Shown here: positions 133 to 20,914 of the stretch, piece after piece
Position numbering within the stretch: position 1 is the stretch's first letter
Layout: each line of letters opens with the position of its first letter
IMG/VR virus record: IMGVR_UViG_3300045988_088582
Span: 1-35,647 of that record
Strand: one strand, 5' to 3'
Length of the DNA: 35,647 nt
Origin: a virus
Program-made: the position numbers and the translations under genes
Notes under the pieces: model-generated
The model's database searches: none
What the model saw: the letters and a program-made list of their open reading frames with translations, nothing else
Told to the model about the DNA's origin: nothing

Positions 133-155
133 AAAAGTGGGTTGCAAAGTGGGTT
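133..155 (+). promoter_or_regulatory. Putative integrase arm-type binding sites, left arm (2 x GTGGGTT, 12-bp spacing)
   Basis: AAAAGTGGGTT at 133-143 and CAAAGTGGGTT at 145-155. The same motif pair with the same spacing and orientation recurs at 35552-35574. Confidence 0.55.
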
Positions 156-1311
156 ATTCCTCGGTGTCCGGGGCGTACTCGGCTAGCACTCCGGAGATGG
201 TCTGAGCAGTGGCAACATCACGACCCGTGACATCATGTGCGTACCAGCCGAAGGTATCCATGCTGCGGCTGTGGCCGACCATGCGGCGCAGCTGAGCGGG
301 TGATACCGCATCCGCAACCATGCTGACAAAGGTGTGCCGCAGTTCGTACAGGCTGATGGGTGGGTCAATGCCGTTGCAGCGCTGATAGAACCTCCAATAG
401 TTATACAGGCTCTGCTGGTTGGACAGCAGAAACAGCGGATCGTCATTCGTCAGCGGTCGCTCCTCTTCCATCGTGCGCTGCCGGAGCTGGGCATGGATCT
501 CGTTCACGGCCAGAGGGTGCAATACCACCGTCCGGATGGCATTCTCATTTTTGCCGCTGGTCTCCTCGTTCTGGCGGTTGATGGCCCGGCCAATGTGGAG
601 CCGGTCTCCGTCCAGATCGCCTACACGCAGGCCCAGCAGTTCTCCGGGGCGCAGGCCGGTCATTACGGCCAGACGGTAGGCGTGCACGTTCTCGTCCGGC
701 TCCACTTTTCCACGAACCACACGGGTATCGGTGGAGAGCAGCACCCGCAGGCTGTCCGGCTGCAGAATCTTCCGCCCCTTCTGGCGAGCACCCTTCGGAA
801 CGGTCAGGTTTTCATCCTCTGGCCGCAGGGTCGTGTACTTATGCTGGCGTGCCCACTTGACAAAGGATACCTCCACGCCACGGATGCCCTGCAGCGTCTT
901 ACGGGAAAGATTGCCCCGGCTCTGGCGCTTGCTGTTCGGATTCAGACAGCCCTCTTTATACGCTCGGTTAAGTACGTCCTGCAGCATTCCTGTGCTCAGG
1001 TCGCCAATCTGCCGGGTACCGATCACTGGCAGGATGTAATTTCGCCCATTCTTTTCTACCTGTTCAATGTAGCTGGTGCCTGCCGTAGCCTTGACAGAGA
1101 TCAGATACTCAGCCCACACCTCAGAGCAGCGCTTTGTGGTATTGCAGATTCCGTCATCCAGCCATGCGTCTGCCTTCCGGTTGGCTTCCCGCTGACCGGT
1201 GCGGCCCGGCTTTGCACTGGTGAACGTCCTGCGCTGGCCGTCCTTCTGCACCTTGATCTGCCAGCGTTTCTGGTTCGGCAGCCACTGGGCGGTATTGGTT
1301 CTTCGTCCCAT
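154..1311 (-). CDS. int: Tyrosine recombinase / phage integrase
   Basis: N-terminus MGRRTNTAQWLPNQKRWQIKV.. looks like an arm-binding domain. C-terminal ELRHTF..GHSRSMDTFGWYAH matches the HxxR...Y catalytic signature. ATG at 1311 is preceded by GGAGG with a 9-nt spacer; the ORF-track extension to 1458 has no support. Confidence 0.93.
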   Translation of the reverse strand: MGRRTNTAQWLPNQKRWQIKVQKDGQRRTFTSAKPGRTGQREANRKADAWLDDGICNTTKRCSEVWAEYLISVKATAGTSYIEQVEKNGRNYILPVIGTRQIGDLSTGMLQDVLNRAYKEGCLNPNSKRQSRGNLSRKTLQGIRGVEVSFVKWARQHKYTTLRPEDENLTVPKGARQKGRKILQPDSLRVLLSTDTRVVRGKVEPDENVHAYRLAVMTGLRPGELLGLRVGDLDGDRLHIGRAINRQNEETSGKNENAIRTVVLHPLAVNEIHAQLRQRTMEEERPLTNDDPLFLLSNQQSLYNYWRFYQRCNGIDPPISLYELRHTFVSMVADAVSPAQLRRMVGHSRSMDTFGWYAHDVTGRDVATAQTISGVLAEYAPDTEE

Positions 1312-1413
1312 AAAAATACACCTCCATGGGTACACTTTGACAAGCCCGCCCAAAAGAGGTATAATCGCAGTGTCGAGTGTGCGATGCCCTCTTCTGGGTG
1401 AGCCGCTTCTTTT

Positions 1414-1452
1414 AACGCCTTCGGTGCGCCAACACCGGGGCGTTTTTCTTTT
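1414..1452 (+). terminator. Intrinsic-terminator-like hairpin on the plus strand, antisense to int and its upstream gene
   Basis: AACGCC(1414-1419)/GGCGTT(1439-1444) plus inner CGGTG/CACCG, followed by TTTTTCTTTTG. The flank on the other side is not A-rich, so it is oriented for the plus strand only. Confidence 0.45.
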
Positions 1453-1531
1453 GTTCAACTACCGAGGATTCCTCGGCAACTCATAGACCAATAGCACTAT
1501 TTGCAAACGGCAAAACCGTTAGCTTTTCAGT

Positions 1532-2270: not shown

Positions 2271-2912
2271 CTACACCAACCCACGACAGAAACCAACAGC
2301 CAAACCTTCCACTTCAATTTCGTCCAAATCGGAACCGGTATAAACCATGGGAGGGCATACAGAGGGGTTGTCTGCAATCAGCTGTACCACGCCATTCTGA
2401 TAATAGCAGTGCTTCAGGGTAGCCTCCTCACCAATGCGCACCGCCGCAATCTGTCCTTGCTCTACTTCCGGCTGACTGCGAATGCAAACCACATCACCGT
2501 CACAAATGGTAGGGGCCATGCTGTCCCCGTGGCATTCCAACGCAAAATCAGCCCTCCATGCAGCCGGAACACCGACATAGCTTTTGATATTCTGCTCTGC
2601 GGTGATGGGTGTGCCGCACGCGATAGAGCCGATCAGGGGGACCTGTACCATTTCGGGCATCGGCATGAACCCCGGCGGGACAACAGGCTTTTGGAGCGAA
2701 GTCATGGGAGCATCGTCCACAATAGCACTTTTGGTGATACCGAAGTAGTTTGCCATCTTTTCGACTGCACCCATGCGGGGAGTCTTTAGCCCAAGTTCCC
2801 AAGTGGACACCGCCTTGTCACTGACACCGGCGATTTTGCCCAGTTCTGCCTGCGACAGACCGTGTTCGGCACGGATTCTTTTTATATTTTCAGCGATGCT
2901 CAATTGAATCAC
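2271..2912 (-). CDS. CI/LexA-like repressor (XRE HTH + S24 autopeptidase)
   Basis: HTH segment GLSQAELGKIAGVSDKAVSTWELG. S24 motifs GDSMAPTI and ATLKHC (Ser/Lys dyad). GTG at 2912 overlaps the RBS; TTG at 2903 (AAGGAG with an 8-nt spacer) may be the true start. Confidence 0.9.
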   Translation of the reverse strand: MIQLSIAENIKRIRAEHGLSQAELGKIAGVSDKAVSTWELGLKTPRMGAVEKMANYFGITKSAIVDDAPMTSLQKPVVPPGFMPMPEMVQVPLIGSIACGTPITAEQNIKSYVGVPAAWRADFALECHGDSMAPTICDGDVVCIRSQPEVEQGQIAAVRIGEEATLKHCYYQNGVVQLIADNPSVCPPMVYTGSDLDEIEVEGLAVGFCRGLV

Positions 2913-15770: not shown

Positions 15771-17013
15771 GTTTCAGCAGGAGTACCTGCGCAACTGTTC
15801 CCACCGGTGGAACGTCAAGACCGGAGCCACCCGAAGCGGCAAGACCTACCTGGACTGTGCCGTGACCATCCCGAAGCGGATCTGCGCGGCCCGGGGCGAG
15901 GGCCTGCTGGTGCTCATGGGCAACACCCTGGGCACACTGGAGCGCAATGTGCTGTCCCTGATGCGGGAGCTCTGGGGCCCCGACCTTGTAGGTGTGATCC
16001 GCACCTCGGCAGCAGGCAACGTGGTACAGCTGTTCGGCAAGAAGGTCTATGTCCTCGGCGCTGACAACAAGAAACACATCGCCCGCATCCAGGGCGCTGC
16101 CTTTGAGTACGTCTACGGTGACGAGATCACCACATGGGACGAAGGCGTGTTCCAGATGCTGAAAAGCCGCCTTTCCTGCCCCCACTCCCATTTTGACGGC
16201 ACCTGCAACCCGGAAAGCCCCACTCACTGGTTCAAGAAGTTTCTGGACAGCGTCGCTGACATCTACTGTCAGGCGTATACCATCGACGATAACCCTACGC
16301 TTCCGGCCCAGTTCGTGGCCGATCTGAAAAAAGAATACACCGGCACGGTCTACTATAACCGCTTTATCTTGGGGCAGTGGATGGCCGCCAACGGCGTGAT
16401 CTACCGCCTGCTGGCCGACAGCCTTGCCGCCGGAGATGGGCGTTTTTTCTGGCCTGTGGACAAGCCGCTGCACCCGTGGCGGGTGCGCATTGGCGTGGAC
16501 TTTGGCGGCAACGGCTCCAAACACGCCTTTGTGGCAACGGCTATCCTGCCGGGGTATTCCGGCGTAGTGGGGCTGGCTTCCCAGCGCATCGACCCGGTGG
16601 CGCAGGATGCCGACTTCCTGGCCGACCGGCTGCTGGAGTTCTGCATGGCTGTCTTTGCCCGCTGGGGCGAGATCCAGTACATCTTCTGCGATTCCGCAGA
16701 GCAGACGCTGATCAACCACATCCGGGCAAGGCTCCGGCGCTGCAAACTGAATTGGCTGGCCGACCGGGTGGAAAACAGCGCCAAGATCCGCATCAATGAC
16801 CGCATCCGCCTGACCTGCATCCTGATGGGCGGCGGGCGGTTCTGGCTGCTGCCCGAGGCTGCCACCCTCCGGGATGCCCTTGCCACGGCCCTGTACAGCG
16901 GCAAGCACCCCGGTGTGGACGAGCGTCTGGATGACGGCAGCACCGATATCGACACATTGGACGCTTACGAGTACACCATCGAGCGCGATTTCAAGAGGTT
17001 GACCAACACATGA
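15757..17013 (+). CDS. terL: Terminase large subunit
   Basis: Walker A KTGATRSGKTY, with later acidic and nuclease-like motifs (YGDEITTW, IGVDFGG). GTG at 15757 is 6 nt after GGGAGGTG. Confidence 0.9.
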   Translation: MPLTEFQQEYLRNCSHRWNVKTGATRSGKTYLDCAVTIPKRICAARGEGLLVLMGNTLGTLERNVLSLMRELWGPDLVGVIRTSAAGNVVQLFGKKVYVLGADNKKHIARIQGAAFEYVYGDEITTWDEGVFQMLKSRLSCPHSHFDGTCNPESPTHWFKKFLDSVADIYCQAYTIDDNPTLPAQFVADLKKEYTGTVYYNRFILGQWMAANGVIYRLLADSLAAGDGRFFWPVDKPLHPWRVRIGVDFGGNGSKHAFVATAILPGYSGVVGLASQRIDPVAQDADFLADRLLEFCMAVFARWGEIQYIFCDSAEQTLINHIRARLRRCKLNWLADRVENSAKIRINDRIRLTCILMGGGRFWLLPEAATLRDALATALYSGKHPGVDERLDDGSTDIDTLDAYEYTIERDFKRLTNT

Positions 17014-18500
17014 ACATCACCGCATTTCTGAACTACCTGAACAAGACGCGCGGGTGGGCCATCGATGCCGACTACTACGGCTACATTGAGACCTGGCGGC
17101 AGTGGTGGCAGGGCAGCGTGCCCAAGGTGCACACCCGTGCCGCTGAATACGCAAACGGCCCCAAAAAGCGCCCCATTGCTTCCCTGCGGATGCCGAAACG
17201 GGTCTGCGAGGACTGGGCGAATCTCCTGCTGAACGACCGCACCACCTTCCAGATCAAGGACGCTGCCACCGCCCGGTATCTGCTGGGCGATGATGAGCAG
17301 CAGGTGGGCGGCCTGCTCCGGGAGCTGCACTTCTGGCGCAATGCCAACGCTCTGGTGGAACAGGCCTACTGGTCCGGTACCGGTGCCTTTGTGCTGAGTG
17401 CCGAAAATCTGACGGTCGTGAAAGGGAAAGCGGTTCCCGGCCCGGATACCCGCCTGAAGCTGGACTATGACCCGGCTTCCTGCATCCTGCCTCTGCGGGT
17501 GGAGCGGGGCATCGTGAGCGAAGCGGCCTTTGTCTCCGAGTGTATGATGGAGGGCAAGCCCGCGGTCTATCTGCAGACCCACACCGGCAATGAGACCCGG
17601 CGCACCATCCGCAACGAGTGGTTCCGGGTAACGGATGGGGTCTCCGGTGCTCCGGTGTTTGAAGCACTGCAGGCCCCGCCGGGTACGGCAGAAAGCATCA
17701 CGGTGGAGGGTTCCCCGCCCTGGTTTACCCTGTTCAGCCCGGCAGCAGTCAAGAACCTTGATGGCGGCACAGGGCTGGGCATGAGCGTCTTTGCCGAAGC
17801 GCTGGCCGAGGCCCAGGGCATCGACCTTGCCTTTGACAACTACCGGGAGGATATCCGGCTGGGCCACAAGAAGATCTTCTACTCTGCGGACATCTGCCGC
17901 AAGGTGGTGGACCAGGAGGGCGTGGAGCACTCTATTCCACCCGATGACGATGTGCAGAGCCAATTCGTCACCCTGCCCCAAAAGGAAGGGAGCCTCGACC
18001 AGTCCAGCGAATACCACGAATACAACCCTGACCTGCGGGTGGAACAGAACCACAAGGCTGTGCAGGATATGCTGAACCTGTTCAGCTTCAAATGCGGCCT
18101 GGGCTGCCACCGGTACAATTTCGAGCTGGGCAACGTGACCACAGCCACCGAGTACAACGGCAGCCGTCAGGATCTGGTGGCCAGCGCCAACAAGAACCAG
18201 ATCCCCATCGAGGGGGCGCTGGTGGGCATCGTGCGGGCCATCCTGTGGGCGGCAAAGAACCTGCAGGGAGCGGCGGTGGACCTCGACACCCCCATCTCTG
18301 TGGACTGGGACGACAGCTACATCACCGATGCCGAGACCCGGATGAGCCAGATGCGGGACGATGCCCTGAGCGGCCTTTTGCCCCGGTACAAGTATCTGTC
18401 TGCCCGGTACGGGGTCAGTGAAGAGGATGCCCGCAAGCTGGCACAGGAAGCCGCTGACGAAAACAAGCAGCCTGAGTTGAGCTTCGGCGGGGGCGGCTGA
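17010..18500 (+). CDS. Portal protein (SPP1 gp6-like)
   Basis: 496 aa, ATGA-coupled to terL and followed by a MuF/gp7 gene. The N-terminus FLNYLNKTRGW..YYGYIETWRQWWQG is typical of gp6-type portals. Confidence 0.85.
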   Translation: MNITAFLNYLNKTRGWAIDADYYGYIETWRQWWQGSVPKVHTRAAEYANGPKKRPIASLRMPKRVCEDWANLLLNDRTTFQIKDAATARYLLGDDEQQVGGLLRELHFWRNANALVEQAYWSGTGAFVLSAENLTVVKGKAVPGPDTRLKLDYDPASCILPLRVERGIVSEAAFVSECMMEGKPAVYLQTHTGNETRRTIRNEWFRVTDGVSGAPVFEALQAPPGTAESITVEGSPPWFTLFSPAAVKNLDGGTGLGMSVFAEALAEAQGIDLAFDNYREDIRLGHKKIFYSADICRKVVDQEGVEHSIPPDDDVQSQFVTLPQKEGSLDQSSEYHEYNPDLRVEQNHKAVQDMLNLFSFKCGLGCHRYNFELGNVTTATEYNGSRQDLVASANKNQIPIEGALVGIVRAILWAAKNLQGAAVDLDTPISVDWDDSYITDAETRMSQMRDDALSGLLPRYKYLSARYGVSEEDARKLAQEAADENKQPELSFGGGG

Positions 18501-20254
18501 TGCTGGCCCCGGACTATCTCGACCACGCACCCGACCGGTTGGTGCTTTTATTTCAGCAGGTCGAGGACGATATCCTGCGGGACGTGGCCCGGCGCATCTC
18601 CAAAATGGACACCATGACCCCCACGGCCAACTGGCAGCTTTGGCGGTATGAACAGACCAAAGCCCTCCGGCAGGACGTGGTAAAGAAGCTGGCCCGCTAC
18701 ACCGGCAAGAGCGAAGCTGAGATCCGGCGGCTCATGCAGGAAGCGGCCACCCGGGCCATGGAAGCCGAGGACGAGATCTACTATCACTACGGCAAGGAGC
18801 CCACGCCCTTTGCCGGGAATGAGACCCTGCAGGCCCTGCTCAACGCTGGCTATCAGCAGACGGCGGGAACCTTCCACAACCTGACCGCTACCACGGCCAA
18901 CACCGTCAGCGGCCAGTTTGAAGCCGCCCTCGACCGCGCCCATCTCAAGGTGAGCAGCGGTGCGTTCGACTACAAGAGCGCCGTCAAGAGCGCGGTGGAC
19001 AGTCTGGCCGACACCATGAAGTACGTCACCTACCCCACCGGCCACACCGACACGCTGGAAGTTGCCGCCCGCCGGGCGGTGCTGACTGGTGTGAATCAGA
19101 CCGGTGCAAAGCTGCAGGTGGCCCGGGCCGATGAGATGGGGGTTGAGTTCTTCGAGACCACGGCCCACGGCGGGGCCCGGCCTTCCCACGCTGAGTGGCA
19201 GGGCAAGCAGTTCCACCGGGGCGGCGCTGTGGACTACATGGGCAGACATTACCCGGACTTCGAGGCCGCCACCGGCTACGGCACCGGGGCCGGGCTTTGC
19301 GGCTGGAACTGTCGGCATCAGTTCTTTTCGGTGTTCCCGGAGCTGGGTGCACCGCCTGCGTGGACGCAGGAGAGCTTGGAAGCCCTCAACGCCCGGGACA
19401 TCGAGTACAACGGCGGCAGATACACCCGGTACGAGATCAGCCAGATGCAGCGGGCCCGGGAGCGCACCGTGCGCAAGTACAAGCGCCGGTATCTGGCTGA
19501 GGATGCCGCCGGGGCCGACACCACCGCCAGCGCGGTGAAGCTCCGGCAGGCCCGTCAGGAGCTGACTGACTTTATCAGCGCCACCGGCGGCAGGGCGGAC
19601 AGCGCCCGCACCAGCGTTGCCGGGTTTGGTCGGAGCGCCAGCAGTAAGGCAATGTGGGCGGCGAAGAAGTTTGATTCCGTGTTGCCAAACCAGCGTGGCA
19701 GTGGTGGCTCCTCCGGGCAGAGCGGCGAAACAGTTCATAAGTACCTGGGAAAAGTCGATTTGAAAGACACCCAGCAAGTGGAAGCCCTTAAGGATTCATT
19801 CTGCAGCAGCTATGCCAATTCCAAAGTCGAGAATATGATGGTCATCACCCGCAACGGTGAAGTCCATTATATGACCGACAATAATCCCCGAGGGGTTGAC
19901 TGCTCGTATCTGGGTGGTAAACTGAAAGGGAGCTACAACATCCACACACACCCGCCAGATACCACACAATATTCCTTCAGCACCGATACAGACATCCCGG
20001 CAGCATTTGCCGATGGCACCCGCATCATGGAAGCTGTGGACTACAAATACAGGTATCAATTTGCTGTTCCGCGTGAAATCACCTTTGAGCAGTGGGAAAC
20101 CGTGTGTGAGGAAGTTCGTGAGGAACAGAACGCCGTGATGGCAAGCCGTGGCTATGGATTCGATGACTACGAAGAAAACATCCAGCACGTCATTATTGAC
20201 GAAACCTGCCGTCGGCTTGGTTTGAAATGCTACCACAGGGAGAAACGGAAATGA
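18500..20254 (+). CDS. MuF / SPP1 gp7-family head morphogenesis protein with an additional ~190-aa C-terminal domain
   Basis: MuF core up to ..GLCGWNCRHQFF. A G/S linker GSGGSSGQSG is followed by a low-GC domain containing NIHTHPPDTTQYSFSTDTD. Confidence 0.85.
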   Translation: MLAPDYLDHAPDRLVLLFQQVEDDILRDVARRISKMDTMTPTANWQLWRYEQTKALRQDVVKKLARYTGKSEAEIRRLMQEAATRAMEAEDEIYYHYGKEPTPFAGNETLQALLNAGYQQTAGTFHNLTATTANTVSGQFEAALDRAHLKVSSGAFDYKSAVKSAVDSLADTMKYVTYPTGHTDTLEVAARRAVLTGVNQTGAKLQVARADEMGVEFFETTAHGGARPSHAEWQGKQFHRGGAVDYMGRHYPDFEAATGYGTGAGLCGWNCRHQFFSVFPELGAPPAWTQESLEALNARDIEYNGGRYTRYEISQMQRARERTVRKYKRRYLAEDAAGADTTASAVKLRQARQELTDFISATGGRADSARTSVAGFGRSASSKAMWAAKKFDSVLPNQRGSGGSSGQSGETVHKYLGKVDLKDTQQVEALKDSFCSSYANSKVENMMVITRNGEVHYMTDNNPRGVDCSYLGGKLKGSYNIHTHPPDTTQYSFSTDTDIPAAFADGTRIMEAVDYKYRYQFAVPREITFEQWETVCEEVREEQNAVMASRGYGFDDYEENIQHVIIDETCRRLGLKCYHREKRK

Positions 20255-20451
20255 GTTACACACTGGAACAGATAGATCAGCTTACTAAGAAAAGCGTTCA
20301 GCGAGAACGTTCCCTTGTTGCTGAGTATAAACGCACCCACTCTGTTCCCAGTAGAGGAATTATTTCCACGCCTGAAATTGATGCCGAACGAGCCGAACAG
20401 AAGCGTTTATATGGCGAGTATTGCAAATTGATTGCGAACAGAAAGGGTTGA
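20251..20451 (+). CDS. Small protein translationally coupled to the MuF C-terminal domain (candidate immunity/partner)
   Basis: ATG at 20251 overlaps the MuF stop (ATGA). 66 aa, charged and helical. Same low-GC island. Confidence 0.55.
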   Translation: MSYTLEQIDQLTKKSVQRERSLVAEYKRTHSVPSRGIISTPEIDAERAEQKRLYGEYCKLIANRKG

Positions 20452-20460
20452 GGTGTTATC

Positions 20461-20784
20461 ATGGAAGATTTTCGTATCATCTACCGCATTTTGAAGTATT
20501 TGCAGCAAAGCATGGACTTTGAGGAGTTCGATTGCGCTGGCTTTACTGCCGAGCGCTTCGGTACGAATCCGAACCGCTTTCAGGCTCTCCTGATTCAGCT
20601 TCAGAAGGCTGGGTTCATTGAGGGCCTGAACATCGTTCGCTACATTCGCCAGCCGGAGCGCATCGAGCCGCCCATGGAACCGCATATCACCTTGCAGGGG
20701 CTTGAATATCTTCAGGAAAACAGCCTGATGAAAAAGGCCGCTGCATTTGCAAAGGGTGTTAAGGAAATCGTCCCCGGCATCTAA
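20461..20784 (+). CDS. YjcQ-family protein
   Basis: MEDFRIIYRILKYLQQSMD...ITLQGLEYLQENSLMKKA..GVKEIVPGI closely follows the YjcQ family pattern. Confidence 0.8.
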   Translation: MEDFRIIYRILKYLQQSMDFEEFDCAGFTAERFGTNPNRFQALLIQLQKAGFIEGLNIVRYIRQPERIEPPMEPHITLQGLEYLQENSLMKKAAAFAKGVKEIVPGI

Positions 20785-20800
20785 CAACCAAATACCGCAA

Positions 20801-20834
20801 GCGTCTTTGCCCAGCCGGGCAGGGGCGCTTTTTT
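20801..20834 (+). terminator. Intrinsic terminator after the YjcQ gene
   Basis: GCGTCTTTGCCC / GGGCAGGGGCGC forms a 12-bp stem (3 G-U pairs) with loop AGCC, followed by TTTTTT. Confidence 0.7.
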
Positions 20835-20837
20835 CAT

Positions 20838-20914
20838 GCCGTCTTAGCTCATTCTGGAAGAGCGCCGGTCTCCAAAACCGGAAGCGGGAGGTTCGATGCC
20901 TCCAGACGGTGCCA
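20838..20914 (+). tRNA. Phage-encoded tRNA-Trp (anticodon CCA), with encoded 3' CCA
   Basis: Manual cloverleaf: acceptor GCCGTCT/AGACGGT (G1-U72); D arm GCTC-ATTCTGGAA-GAGC; anticodon arm CCGGT-CTCCAAA-ACCGG; variable loop AAGCG; T arm GGAGG-TTCGATG-CCTCC; discriminator G; CCA. U8, A14, G18G19, U33 and T54-C56 are all present. Confidence 0.9.

Follow-up and report, generated by a model that had tools for sequence, protein, structure and literature searches.

The sequence analysed here, referred to throughout as the window, is a stretch of 35,647 nucleotides comprising positions 1 to 35,647 of the IMG/VR virus record IMGVR_UViG_3300045988_088582, which by gene content represents a complete temperate siphophage. 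The element in question is the distal part of its MuF gene (18500..20254, + strand), which encodes a MuF/gp7-type minor head protein of 584 aa, together with the small open reading frame (ORF) that follows it. With moderate confidence, we read positions 19670-20436 as a variable effector cassette at the C-terminal end of a polymorphic head protein of the MuF (SPP1 gp7) type, made up of a virion-delivered metallohydrolase and its cognate inhibitor. The MuF core is conserved, and the region past about residue 390 swaps between phages as one unit with the next small gene. A conserved N-terminus joined to a swapped C-terminus with a partner gene is the pattern that defines polymorphic toxins; the system belongs to the known MuF polymorphic-toxin kind, as a new member without a name.

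A cassette exchanged on a conserved MuF backbone

In the MuF protein, Phage_min_cap2 (Pfam PF06152) spans residues 2-359 (E 1.6e-125), and "minor head protein" (phrog_581) is the sole label assigned through PHROGs. Past this core, R399 precedes a Gly/Ser linker, GSGGSSGQSG (residues 400-409; 19697..19726, + strand, read directly), which leads into a C-terminal domain of 176 aa. No significant Pfam match was obtained for residues 409-584, and searches of the domain against NCBIfam and PADLOC returned zero matches. An AlphaFold2 (AF2) model and the family profile delimit a conserved domain core (residues ~412-525; 19733..20074, + strand) that is common to all members of the domain family, followed by a C-terminal helical sub-domain (residues 526-584; 20075..20251, + strand) whose length varies in the family, from 36 to 64 aa among loci, and which ends in a conserved Y578-x-R580. 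G+C falls from 0.655 in the MuF core to 0.49 in the C-terminal domain and 0.44 in the small ORF, and by its G+C at third codon positions (GC3; 0.57 in the domain and 0.41 in the small ORF, versus 0.84 in the core) the composition of the cassette is foreign. A preliminary description of this DNA had proposed a low-G+C extension on MuF, and this extension, 176 aa past the Phage_min_cap2 core and the linker, is real; the G+C contents counted by hand in that description were exact (49.2% for 19801-19920 and 76.7% for 19501-19560).

The backbone was sampled through 79 viral contigs with MuF cores 73-97% identical to that of the window. Among these loci there are at least eight classes of C-terminus, in MuF proteins of 503, 504, 507, 512, 557, 582, 584 and 587 aa, which diverge abruptly from one another after about residue 390, and each class has its own unrelated ORF of 55-74 aa overlapping the MuF stop codon. 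Alignment of the window by blastn with seven other alleles on the same backbone located the limits of the exchange. On the left, all seven lose their DNA identity of 94-96% at 19637-19669; on the right, it resumes at 20437 in alleles that bear a YjcQ gene, including that of Faecalibacterium phage FP_Lugh (NC_047912), the nearest isolate, with a MuF core 95% identical, and at 20782-20790 in alleles that lack YjcQ. These breakpoints therefore define an exchangeable low-G+C unit at 19670-20436 (+ strand), consisting of the junction and linker, the C-terminal domain and the small ORF, and make the YjcQ gene a second, independent optional module.

The converse sample, 80 contigs retrieved via the C-terminal domain itself, has a homologue of the 66-aa ORF directly 3' of the domain in 78 cases. 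Domains 77-79% identical and small ORFs 81-82% identical to those of the window sit on MuF cores that are just 31-36% identical, and the pair is also present on contigs whose MuF core escapes tblastn. The percent identities of domain and small ORF drop in parallel (100/98-100, 85/78, 79/82, 65/45-70 and 53/50), with small-ORF identity following that of the domain and not that of the MuF core. The test proposed in the preliminary description, namely whether the C-terminus is a swappable cassette with a co-varying downstream ORF, is answered in the affirmative by the eight or more classes, the sharp breakpoints and the 78/80 loci.

Two further observations concern the extent of this exchange. 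The same MuF, cassette and YjcQ (93-100% identical) are found beside a portal that is either 97-99% or ~29% identical, and in the same sets of contigs the scaffold is either 97% (L001, L002, L005, L007, L069) or ~34% identical (L003, L006, L008); with portal and scaffold of two kinds beside a near-identical MuF block, this block is therefore common to two head-gene backbones. Shortened proteins of 213-279 aa (P0008, P0011, P0012) have the first ~70-115 MuF residues joined directly to the domain, and a 139-aa form that starts inside the domain occurs on 70 contigs, including a 522-kb Faecalibacterium contig. All of these shortened forms are probably decaying prophages.

The 66-aa partner gene

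The partner ORF, a candidate immunity or inhibitor gene of 66 aa (20251..20451, + strand), starts on the MuF stop codon in an ATGA at 20251, as the preliminary description had it and as is read directly from the DNA, and a GGGAG-type ribosome-binding site lies ~10 nt 5' of it. A longer form of 74 aa, from 20227, exists, and homologues keep the 66-aa form only. With a ratio of nonsynonymous to synonymous polymorphism (pN/pS) of 0.16 and variable sites distributed 30/17/58 over the three codon positions, the small ORF is a real gene under purifying selection. Such a dedicated, translationally coupled partner is expected if the enzyme needs silencing in the cell that produces it.

The arrangement extends to three distant subfamilies of the domain, in which an ORF of 59-93 aa starts at or just before the stop codon of the carrier gene in about 145 of 157 loci, the remainder being truncated contigs. 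BLAST divides these small ORFs into 14 clusters, and four of the largest are homologous to one another (hhalign probability 89-96%). When an iterative hidden Markov model search was started with the 66-aa ORF, its counterparts in the distant subfamilies were not retrieved. By eye, several of the small proteins consist of a helix, a Gly-containing loop and a second helix, with the loop reading VPSRG.ISTPE in the window and YP.W.G.D.P elsewhere, and we found no signal peptide or lipobox in the 66-aa protein sequence. Small-ORF identity correlates to the same degree with the domain core and with the helical tail (r about 0.8 each) and so points to no particular binding surface.

The YjcQ-family gene next downstream (20461..20784, + strand; Pfam PF09639, E 2e-21), which is found with the 584- and 587-aa MuF alleles only, was considered as a candidate for immunity as well and was ruled out, since it also accompanies the 587-aa allele, which is unrelated, and most loci that bear the domain lack it.

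A domain family carried by phage head proteins

A profile built from close homologues of the domain and searched against 1.84 billion representative sequences retrieved 348 clusters (50% identity) at E<=1e-3, 110 of them at E<=1e-10; these are mostly proteins of 450-650 aa with the domain at the C-terminus. The carriers were scanned with Pfam in 104 members drawn from the best 150 of the 348 clusters, giving 45 with Phage_Mu_F, 30 with Phage_min_cap2, five with an N-terminal VG15 (PF25310) in place of MuF and two portal fusions; the remaining scanned members were mostly without a significant Pfam match. No secretion-system toxin scaffold was found among the 104 members scanned, and the carriers that could be identified in the family are all head proteins of phages (MuF, portal or VG15). 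One family member with a response-regulator receiver domain was also seen.

In genomes, matches to the domain fall in Faecalibacterium, Fournierella/Allofournierella and other Oscillospiraceae, and among 50,697 deposited phage records the domain is present in one, an unannotated faecal contig. The 90%-identity cluster of the closest relative holds 4025 members, including 476-aa sequences named portal protein. We found no record of a link between MuF and JAB in the literature or in the supplements of Jamet 2017.

Conservation was counted over 99 non-redundant members that are <60% identical to one another. Six residues are invariant (99/99 each): E444, H482, H484, D498, D514 and Y519. Nearly invariant are G453, N483 (T in the window), S492 (91/99), F493 (98/99), S494 (94/99) and Y517 (94/99). 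E444, a candidate general base, opens strand 2 (19829..19831, + strand), the candidate metal site is formed by H482-T-H484...S492-F-S494...D498 (19943..19993, + strand), and a second invariant patch, D514-x-K-Y517-x-Y519 (20039..20056, + strand), follows strand 5.

The domain contains the string VENMMVIT...NIHTHPPDTTQYSFSTDTD, in which the preliminary description had recognised a JAB-like E...HxH...S...D pattern. The pattern is present and invariant in the family, although its details needed revision: the Glu is E444 and not E454, and the Asp is D498 and not D496. As D498 is invariant and D496 is matched in only 22/99 members, the catalytic-type Asp is therefore D498, which is the later D in DTD. 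In consensus, the family reads E-x37-H-N-H-P-x6-S-F-S-x2-D, and the window has HxH-x7-S-x-S-x3-D, with x2 before the Asp in most members; T495 is a one-residue insertion found in 15/99 members. Relative to HxHx7SxxD, the interval from Ser to Asp is off by two residues in the family and by three in the window, where an excess of one had been claimed.

Possible relationship to JAB and RadC domains

The AF2 model of the domain has a predicted local distance difference test score (pLDDT) of 91 and a predicted template modelling score (pTM) of 0.85. A model of the core only falls to pLDDT 71.5, and the helical tail therefore seems packed on the core. The elements of the model (E4-10 H16-30 E36-41 E46-52 H61-67 E71-75 H90-97 E101-105 E109-114) follow the order beta-alpha-beta-beta-alpha-beta(HxH)-alpha(D)-beta-beta, with HxH at the C-terminal end of E71-75 and the Asp at the start of H90-97; we take this to be the order of the RadC JAB domain with a strand added at the N-terminus.

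Three JAB families gave weak matches below threshold, all in register with HxH: Toxin-JAB1 (PF15659; E 0.003, 18.3 bits versus a cutoff of 21), Prok-JAB (E 0.022) and, with the family consensus as query, RadC (PF04002; E 0.024, 15 bits versus a cutoff of 22.1). DUF4329 gave no match to the domain. In a Foldseek search of BFVD, "minor capsid proteins" of gut phages ranked top (E 7e-17) and were followed by giant-virus proteins; further matches, both at E 6e-3, were a phage RadC (prob 0.97) and a viral protein labelled "deubiquitination hydrolase". The compact PDB matches in Foldseek were weak and limited to cytidine and blasticidin deaminases; in SCOP, deaminases are placed in the same fold class as JAB. 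Tox-JAB-2 has been reported in tailed phages and giant viruses (Zhang 2012, PMC3482391). Alignment by hhalign with 40 RadC sequences (relatives of E. coli YicR) brought E, HNHP, S and D into register at P 3e-4, a score that exceeds 30/30 full column shuffles.

Compared with RadC-like JAB domains (PF04002; E. coli YicR; the RadC of polyvalent proteins, Iyer 2017, PMC5512222), most members of the window's family have the same HNHP block, and the likeness extends to a Glu opening the strand after helix 1, a Ser and an Asp past HxH, an Asp after strand 5 (the RadC "LDH"), the order of helices and strands and the association with phages. Unlike in RadC, Ser and Asp are set apart by two additional residues in the family (three in the window), and the window's domain gains a strand at its N-terminus and a helical sub-domain at its C-terminus. 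Tox-JAB-1 and Tox-JAB-2 (Zhang 2012) are likewise divergent JAB domains with E, H[ST]H, S and D, a predicted use as toxins and a paired immunity gene. Tox-JAB-1 (PF15659), however, is borne by RHS toxins of Bacteroidetes and paired with the immunity lipoprotein Imm65, and Tox-JAB-2 uses an NTF2-like immunity protein, whereas the window's domain has a MuF carrier in Oscillospiraceae phages and a two-helix partner of 66 aa.

Proposed mechanism and its place among MuF toxins

From the invariant residues and the model, the domain would be a metal-dependent hydrolase of JAB/RadC (deaminase-like fold) type, in which H482, H484 and D498 would hold the metal, E444 would activate the water and S492 or S494 would stabilise the intermediate. 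Candidate substrates are peptide and isopeptide bonds as well as nucleic acids and nucleotides. Because the domain is fused to MuF, it would be packaged and delivered, with a few MuF-domain copies at the portal passing into the next cell together with the DNA. The 66-aa two-helix protein would be its immunity protein or inhibitor, binding and silencing the domain in a producing cell or a lysogen.

This arrangement has much in common with the MuF polymorphic toxins (Jamet 2017, PMC5576092; Zhang 2012, PMC3482391). The window shares with them an N-terminal MuF2 (PF06152) encoded right after the portal gene, a C-terminus that varies while the N-terminus is conserved, a short ORF (<150 aa) immediately 3', a Firmicutes host, a temperate phage and the exchange of cassettes between relatives; MuF toxins with small downstream ORFs have been described (PMC5576092). 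Unlike them, the window's domain is not among the catalogued toxin domains, remains below the Pfam thresholds even for Toxin-JAB1 (18.3 < 21 bits) and is found on phage head proteins only, whereas about 75% of catalogued MuF toxin domains are common to other toxin families (PMC5576092). The toxin and immunity pair suggested in the preliminary description is thus favoured by the cassette, its co-inherited small ORF and the temperate phage setting, but the domain is not a recognised toxin domain. MuF cargo may act as an interbacterial toxin (PMC5576092) or, as described for MuF fusions, as an injected effector for early host takeover or anti-defence (PMC5512222).

Several results weigh against the reading of the cassette as a JAB-type effector with its inhibitor. 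We found no significant match to the JAB profiles PF01398, PF14464, PF04002, PF15659 and PF14220, and PDB sequence searches with the domain and with a 35-sequence profile gave matches at chance level only. In Foldseek against the PDB, the best E was 0.13 with the full model and 0.4 with the core-only one, and the top 50 contained no JAB/MPN structure. The hhalign score with RadC is equalled when columns are shuffled in 6-column blocks that retain the HNHP block, and this evidence is therefore at the level of the motif only and was discounted. The Ser-to-Asp spacing departs from the JAMM rule, and the cluster that contains the window's small ORF links weakly to the other small-ORF clusters (best hhalign P 0.0026). 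Finally, unlike most MuF toxin domains, this one was seen on no toxin-delivery scaffold other than heads, and a head-specific purpose, and not that of a generic toxin, may therefore apply.

Taken with these results, the fold comparison suggested in the preliminary description gave a mixed outcome, in that the element order and the weak Pfam and BFVD matches agree with JAB/RadC, while no solved structure was matched and the profile match is driven by HNHP. Membership of the JAB superfamily is plausible from the motif, the element order and the weak Pfam and BFVD matches, and we regard it as fairly likely. That the domain is a metal-dependent hydrolase of some kind we consider somewhat likelier still.

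Alternative explanations

The same features could describe an enzyme that belongs to the phage head itself. The domain would then be the first JAB-type protease packaged in phage heads, either releasing itself after the Gly-rich junction or cutting host peptide or isopeptide bonds on injection, with the 66-aa inhibitor silencing it until packaging. We think this unlikely; if true, it would define a head-specific enzyme class instead of a generic interbacterial toxin.

Another explanation, to which we give a slightly lower and still small chance, is a self-processing or maturation protease, in which the JAB-like domain would cut in cis at the Gly-rich junction (RGSGG), freeing itself or maturing MuF in the head or on ejection, and the small protein would delay the cut until assembly. 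A motif of the RGSGG, GRGSG or GL[GSA]A type stands at a fixed position, 8-13 residues before the domain, in 45/122 members versus 9/458 control windows (2%); its variants are RGSGG, GRGSG, GLGAN and GLAAx, and in the window the junction is at 19685-19726 (residues ~396-409). Processing may take place at this junction; JAMM enzymes cleave after Gly-Gly, and the restriction of the domain to head-protein carriers agrees with such a role. Autoproteolytic release is also common in polymorphic toxins (PMC3482391). However, the motif is not always GG (GLGAN, GLAAK) and may be a mere flexible linker or recombination junction; the unrelated domains of sister alleles lack it, so that MuF does not need it, and self-removal alone leaves no obvious payload.

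The preliminary description had also raised an anti-defence isopeptidase, an injected JAB enzyme that would strip the ubiquitin-like conjugates made by Cap2 of the cyclic-oligonucleotide-based antiphage signalling system (CBASS) or by Bil-type systems. The invariance of the JAMM-like residues, delivery well timed alongside the DNA and the BFVD match named deubiquitination hydrolase could be cited in its favour. Nevertheless, no PADLOC defence-system model was matched, those for JAB components included, and unlike CBASS Cap3 and Bil-type JAB proteins, the domain has phage head genes as neighbours and not an E1/E2/ubiquitin-like operon. Its weak sequence matches go instead to the RadC, Tox-JAB and Prok-JAB families, and RadC and Tox-JAB have been argued to be without the groove for a ubiquitin tail (Zhang 2012, PMC3482391; Iyer 2017, PMC5512222). 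A conserved and coupled partner gene suggests a harmful activity, and elsewhere the same slot is occupied by unrelated domains, each with its own small ORF. This explanation finds no positive support and is very improbable.

Least probable of all is a non-catalytic extension (a DNA- or portal-binding or structural module) with HxH playing no part in catalysis and the small ORF being an unrelated gene for head assembly, since, for all that no characterised enzyme is significantly matched and phage Mu gpF carries an inactive C-terminal domain (PMC5512222), the invariance of E, H, H, D, D and Y in members <60% identical is typical of active sites and the cassette, unlike a structural necessity, is dispensable and replaceable in sister phages.

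Other alleles in the same slot

The other occupants of the slot include a 582-aa allele (L239, L249, L296, L308, L311) containing "AIHTHPACGNFSNGD", a second HxH...SxxD string in unrelated sequence; this allele has its own downstream ORF of 71 aa and no Pfam match. In the 587-aa allele (L242 and 15 others; gp21 of FP_Lugh, L318 3001-4764) there is an HExxH-like motif, HEYGH, and the anthrax lethal factor family is weakly matched (PF07737, E 0.011); an unrelated 66-aa ORF comes next. The 507-, 504- and 512-aa alleles (the L263, L283 and L245 classes) have a short C-terminal domain in common ("...SQRNGTQ..YYSE.GF..."), and each is followed by a Cys-rich ORF of 67-68 aa with C..C...C..C spacing, possibly a zinc-binding partner.

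FP_Lugh offers the closest comparison. Its gp21-gp22 region has the backbone, slot and gene order of the window, with a 66-aa ORF overlapping the MuF stop codon and then YjcQ, tRNA-Trp and scaffold, but the C-terminal domain of its 587-aa allele and its small ORF are both unrelated to those of the window.

Phage and gene neighbourhood

The phage is a temperate, Lughvirus-like gut phage of Faecalibacterium. An integrase (154-1458, minus strand) and a CI-like helix-turn-helix (HTH)/S24 repressor (2271-2912, minus strand) are present, and the other genes encode Rha, helicase, primase, TerL, portal, MuF, scaffold, major capsid protein and tape measure, as well as a GH25 lysin and an SPP1-type holin. 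The portal gene (17010..18500, + strand; phrog_533 portal protein, E 2.2e-78) lies immediately 5' of MuF and the scaffold gene (PF06810) follows in the order portal-MuF-scaffold; portal followed by MuF is the gene order in the definition of MuF proteins (PMC5576092). The setting of a temperate Firmicutes phage with MuF directly 3' of the portal gene, as the preliminary description had it, agrees with this gene content.

Downstream of YjcQ, a terminator-like hairpin with a 14-bp stem and T-run (20799..20830, + strand) is followed by a tRNA-Trp (CCA) gene (20838..20914, + strand; ARAGORN and Rfam, 56.7 bits), which is only a neighbour of the cassette and lies within the head module between the YjcQ and scaffold genes. 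FP_Lugh has the same tRNA-Trp (L318 5338-5413), an interval in which the RefSeq feature table has no RNA gene, and its YjcQ gene (L318 4961-5284) is labelled "dihydrolipoyl dehydrogenase", which looks like a mis-annotation.

Significance

As a class of polymorphic effectors borne by phages, MuF toxins are recognised but have barely been characterised. Here, one lineage of Faecalibacterium prausnitzii phages has at least eight pairs of domain and partner in one slot, almost all of them without a name in the databases, and the JAB-like family among them is frequent in gut metagenomes, with 348 clusters at 50% identity. These alleles are a natural series for probing virion-delivered effectors that act on a keystone gut commensal, and the domain described here is a tractable case for the question, dating from 2012, of whether divergent domains of the RadC/Tox-JAB type are peptidases or nucleases.

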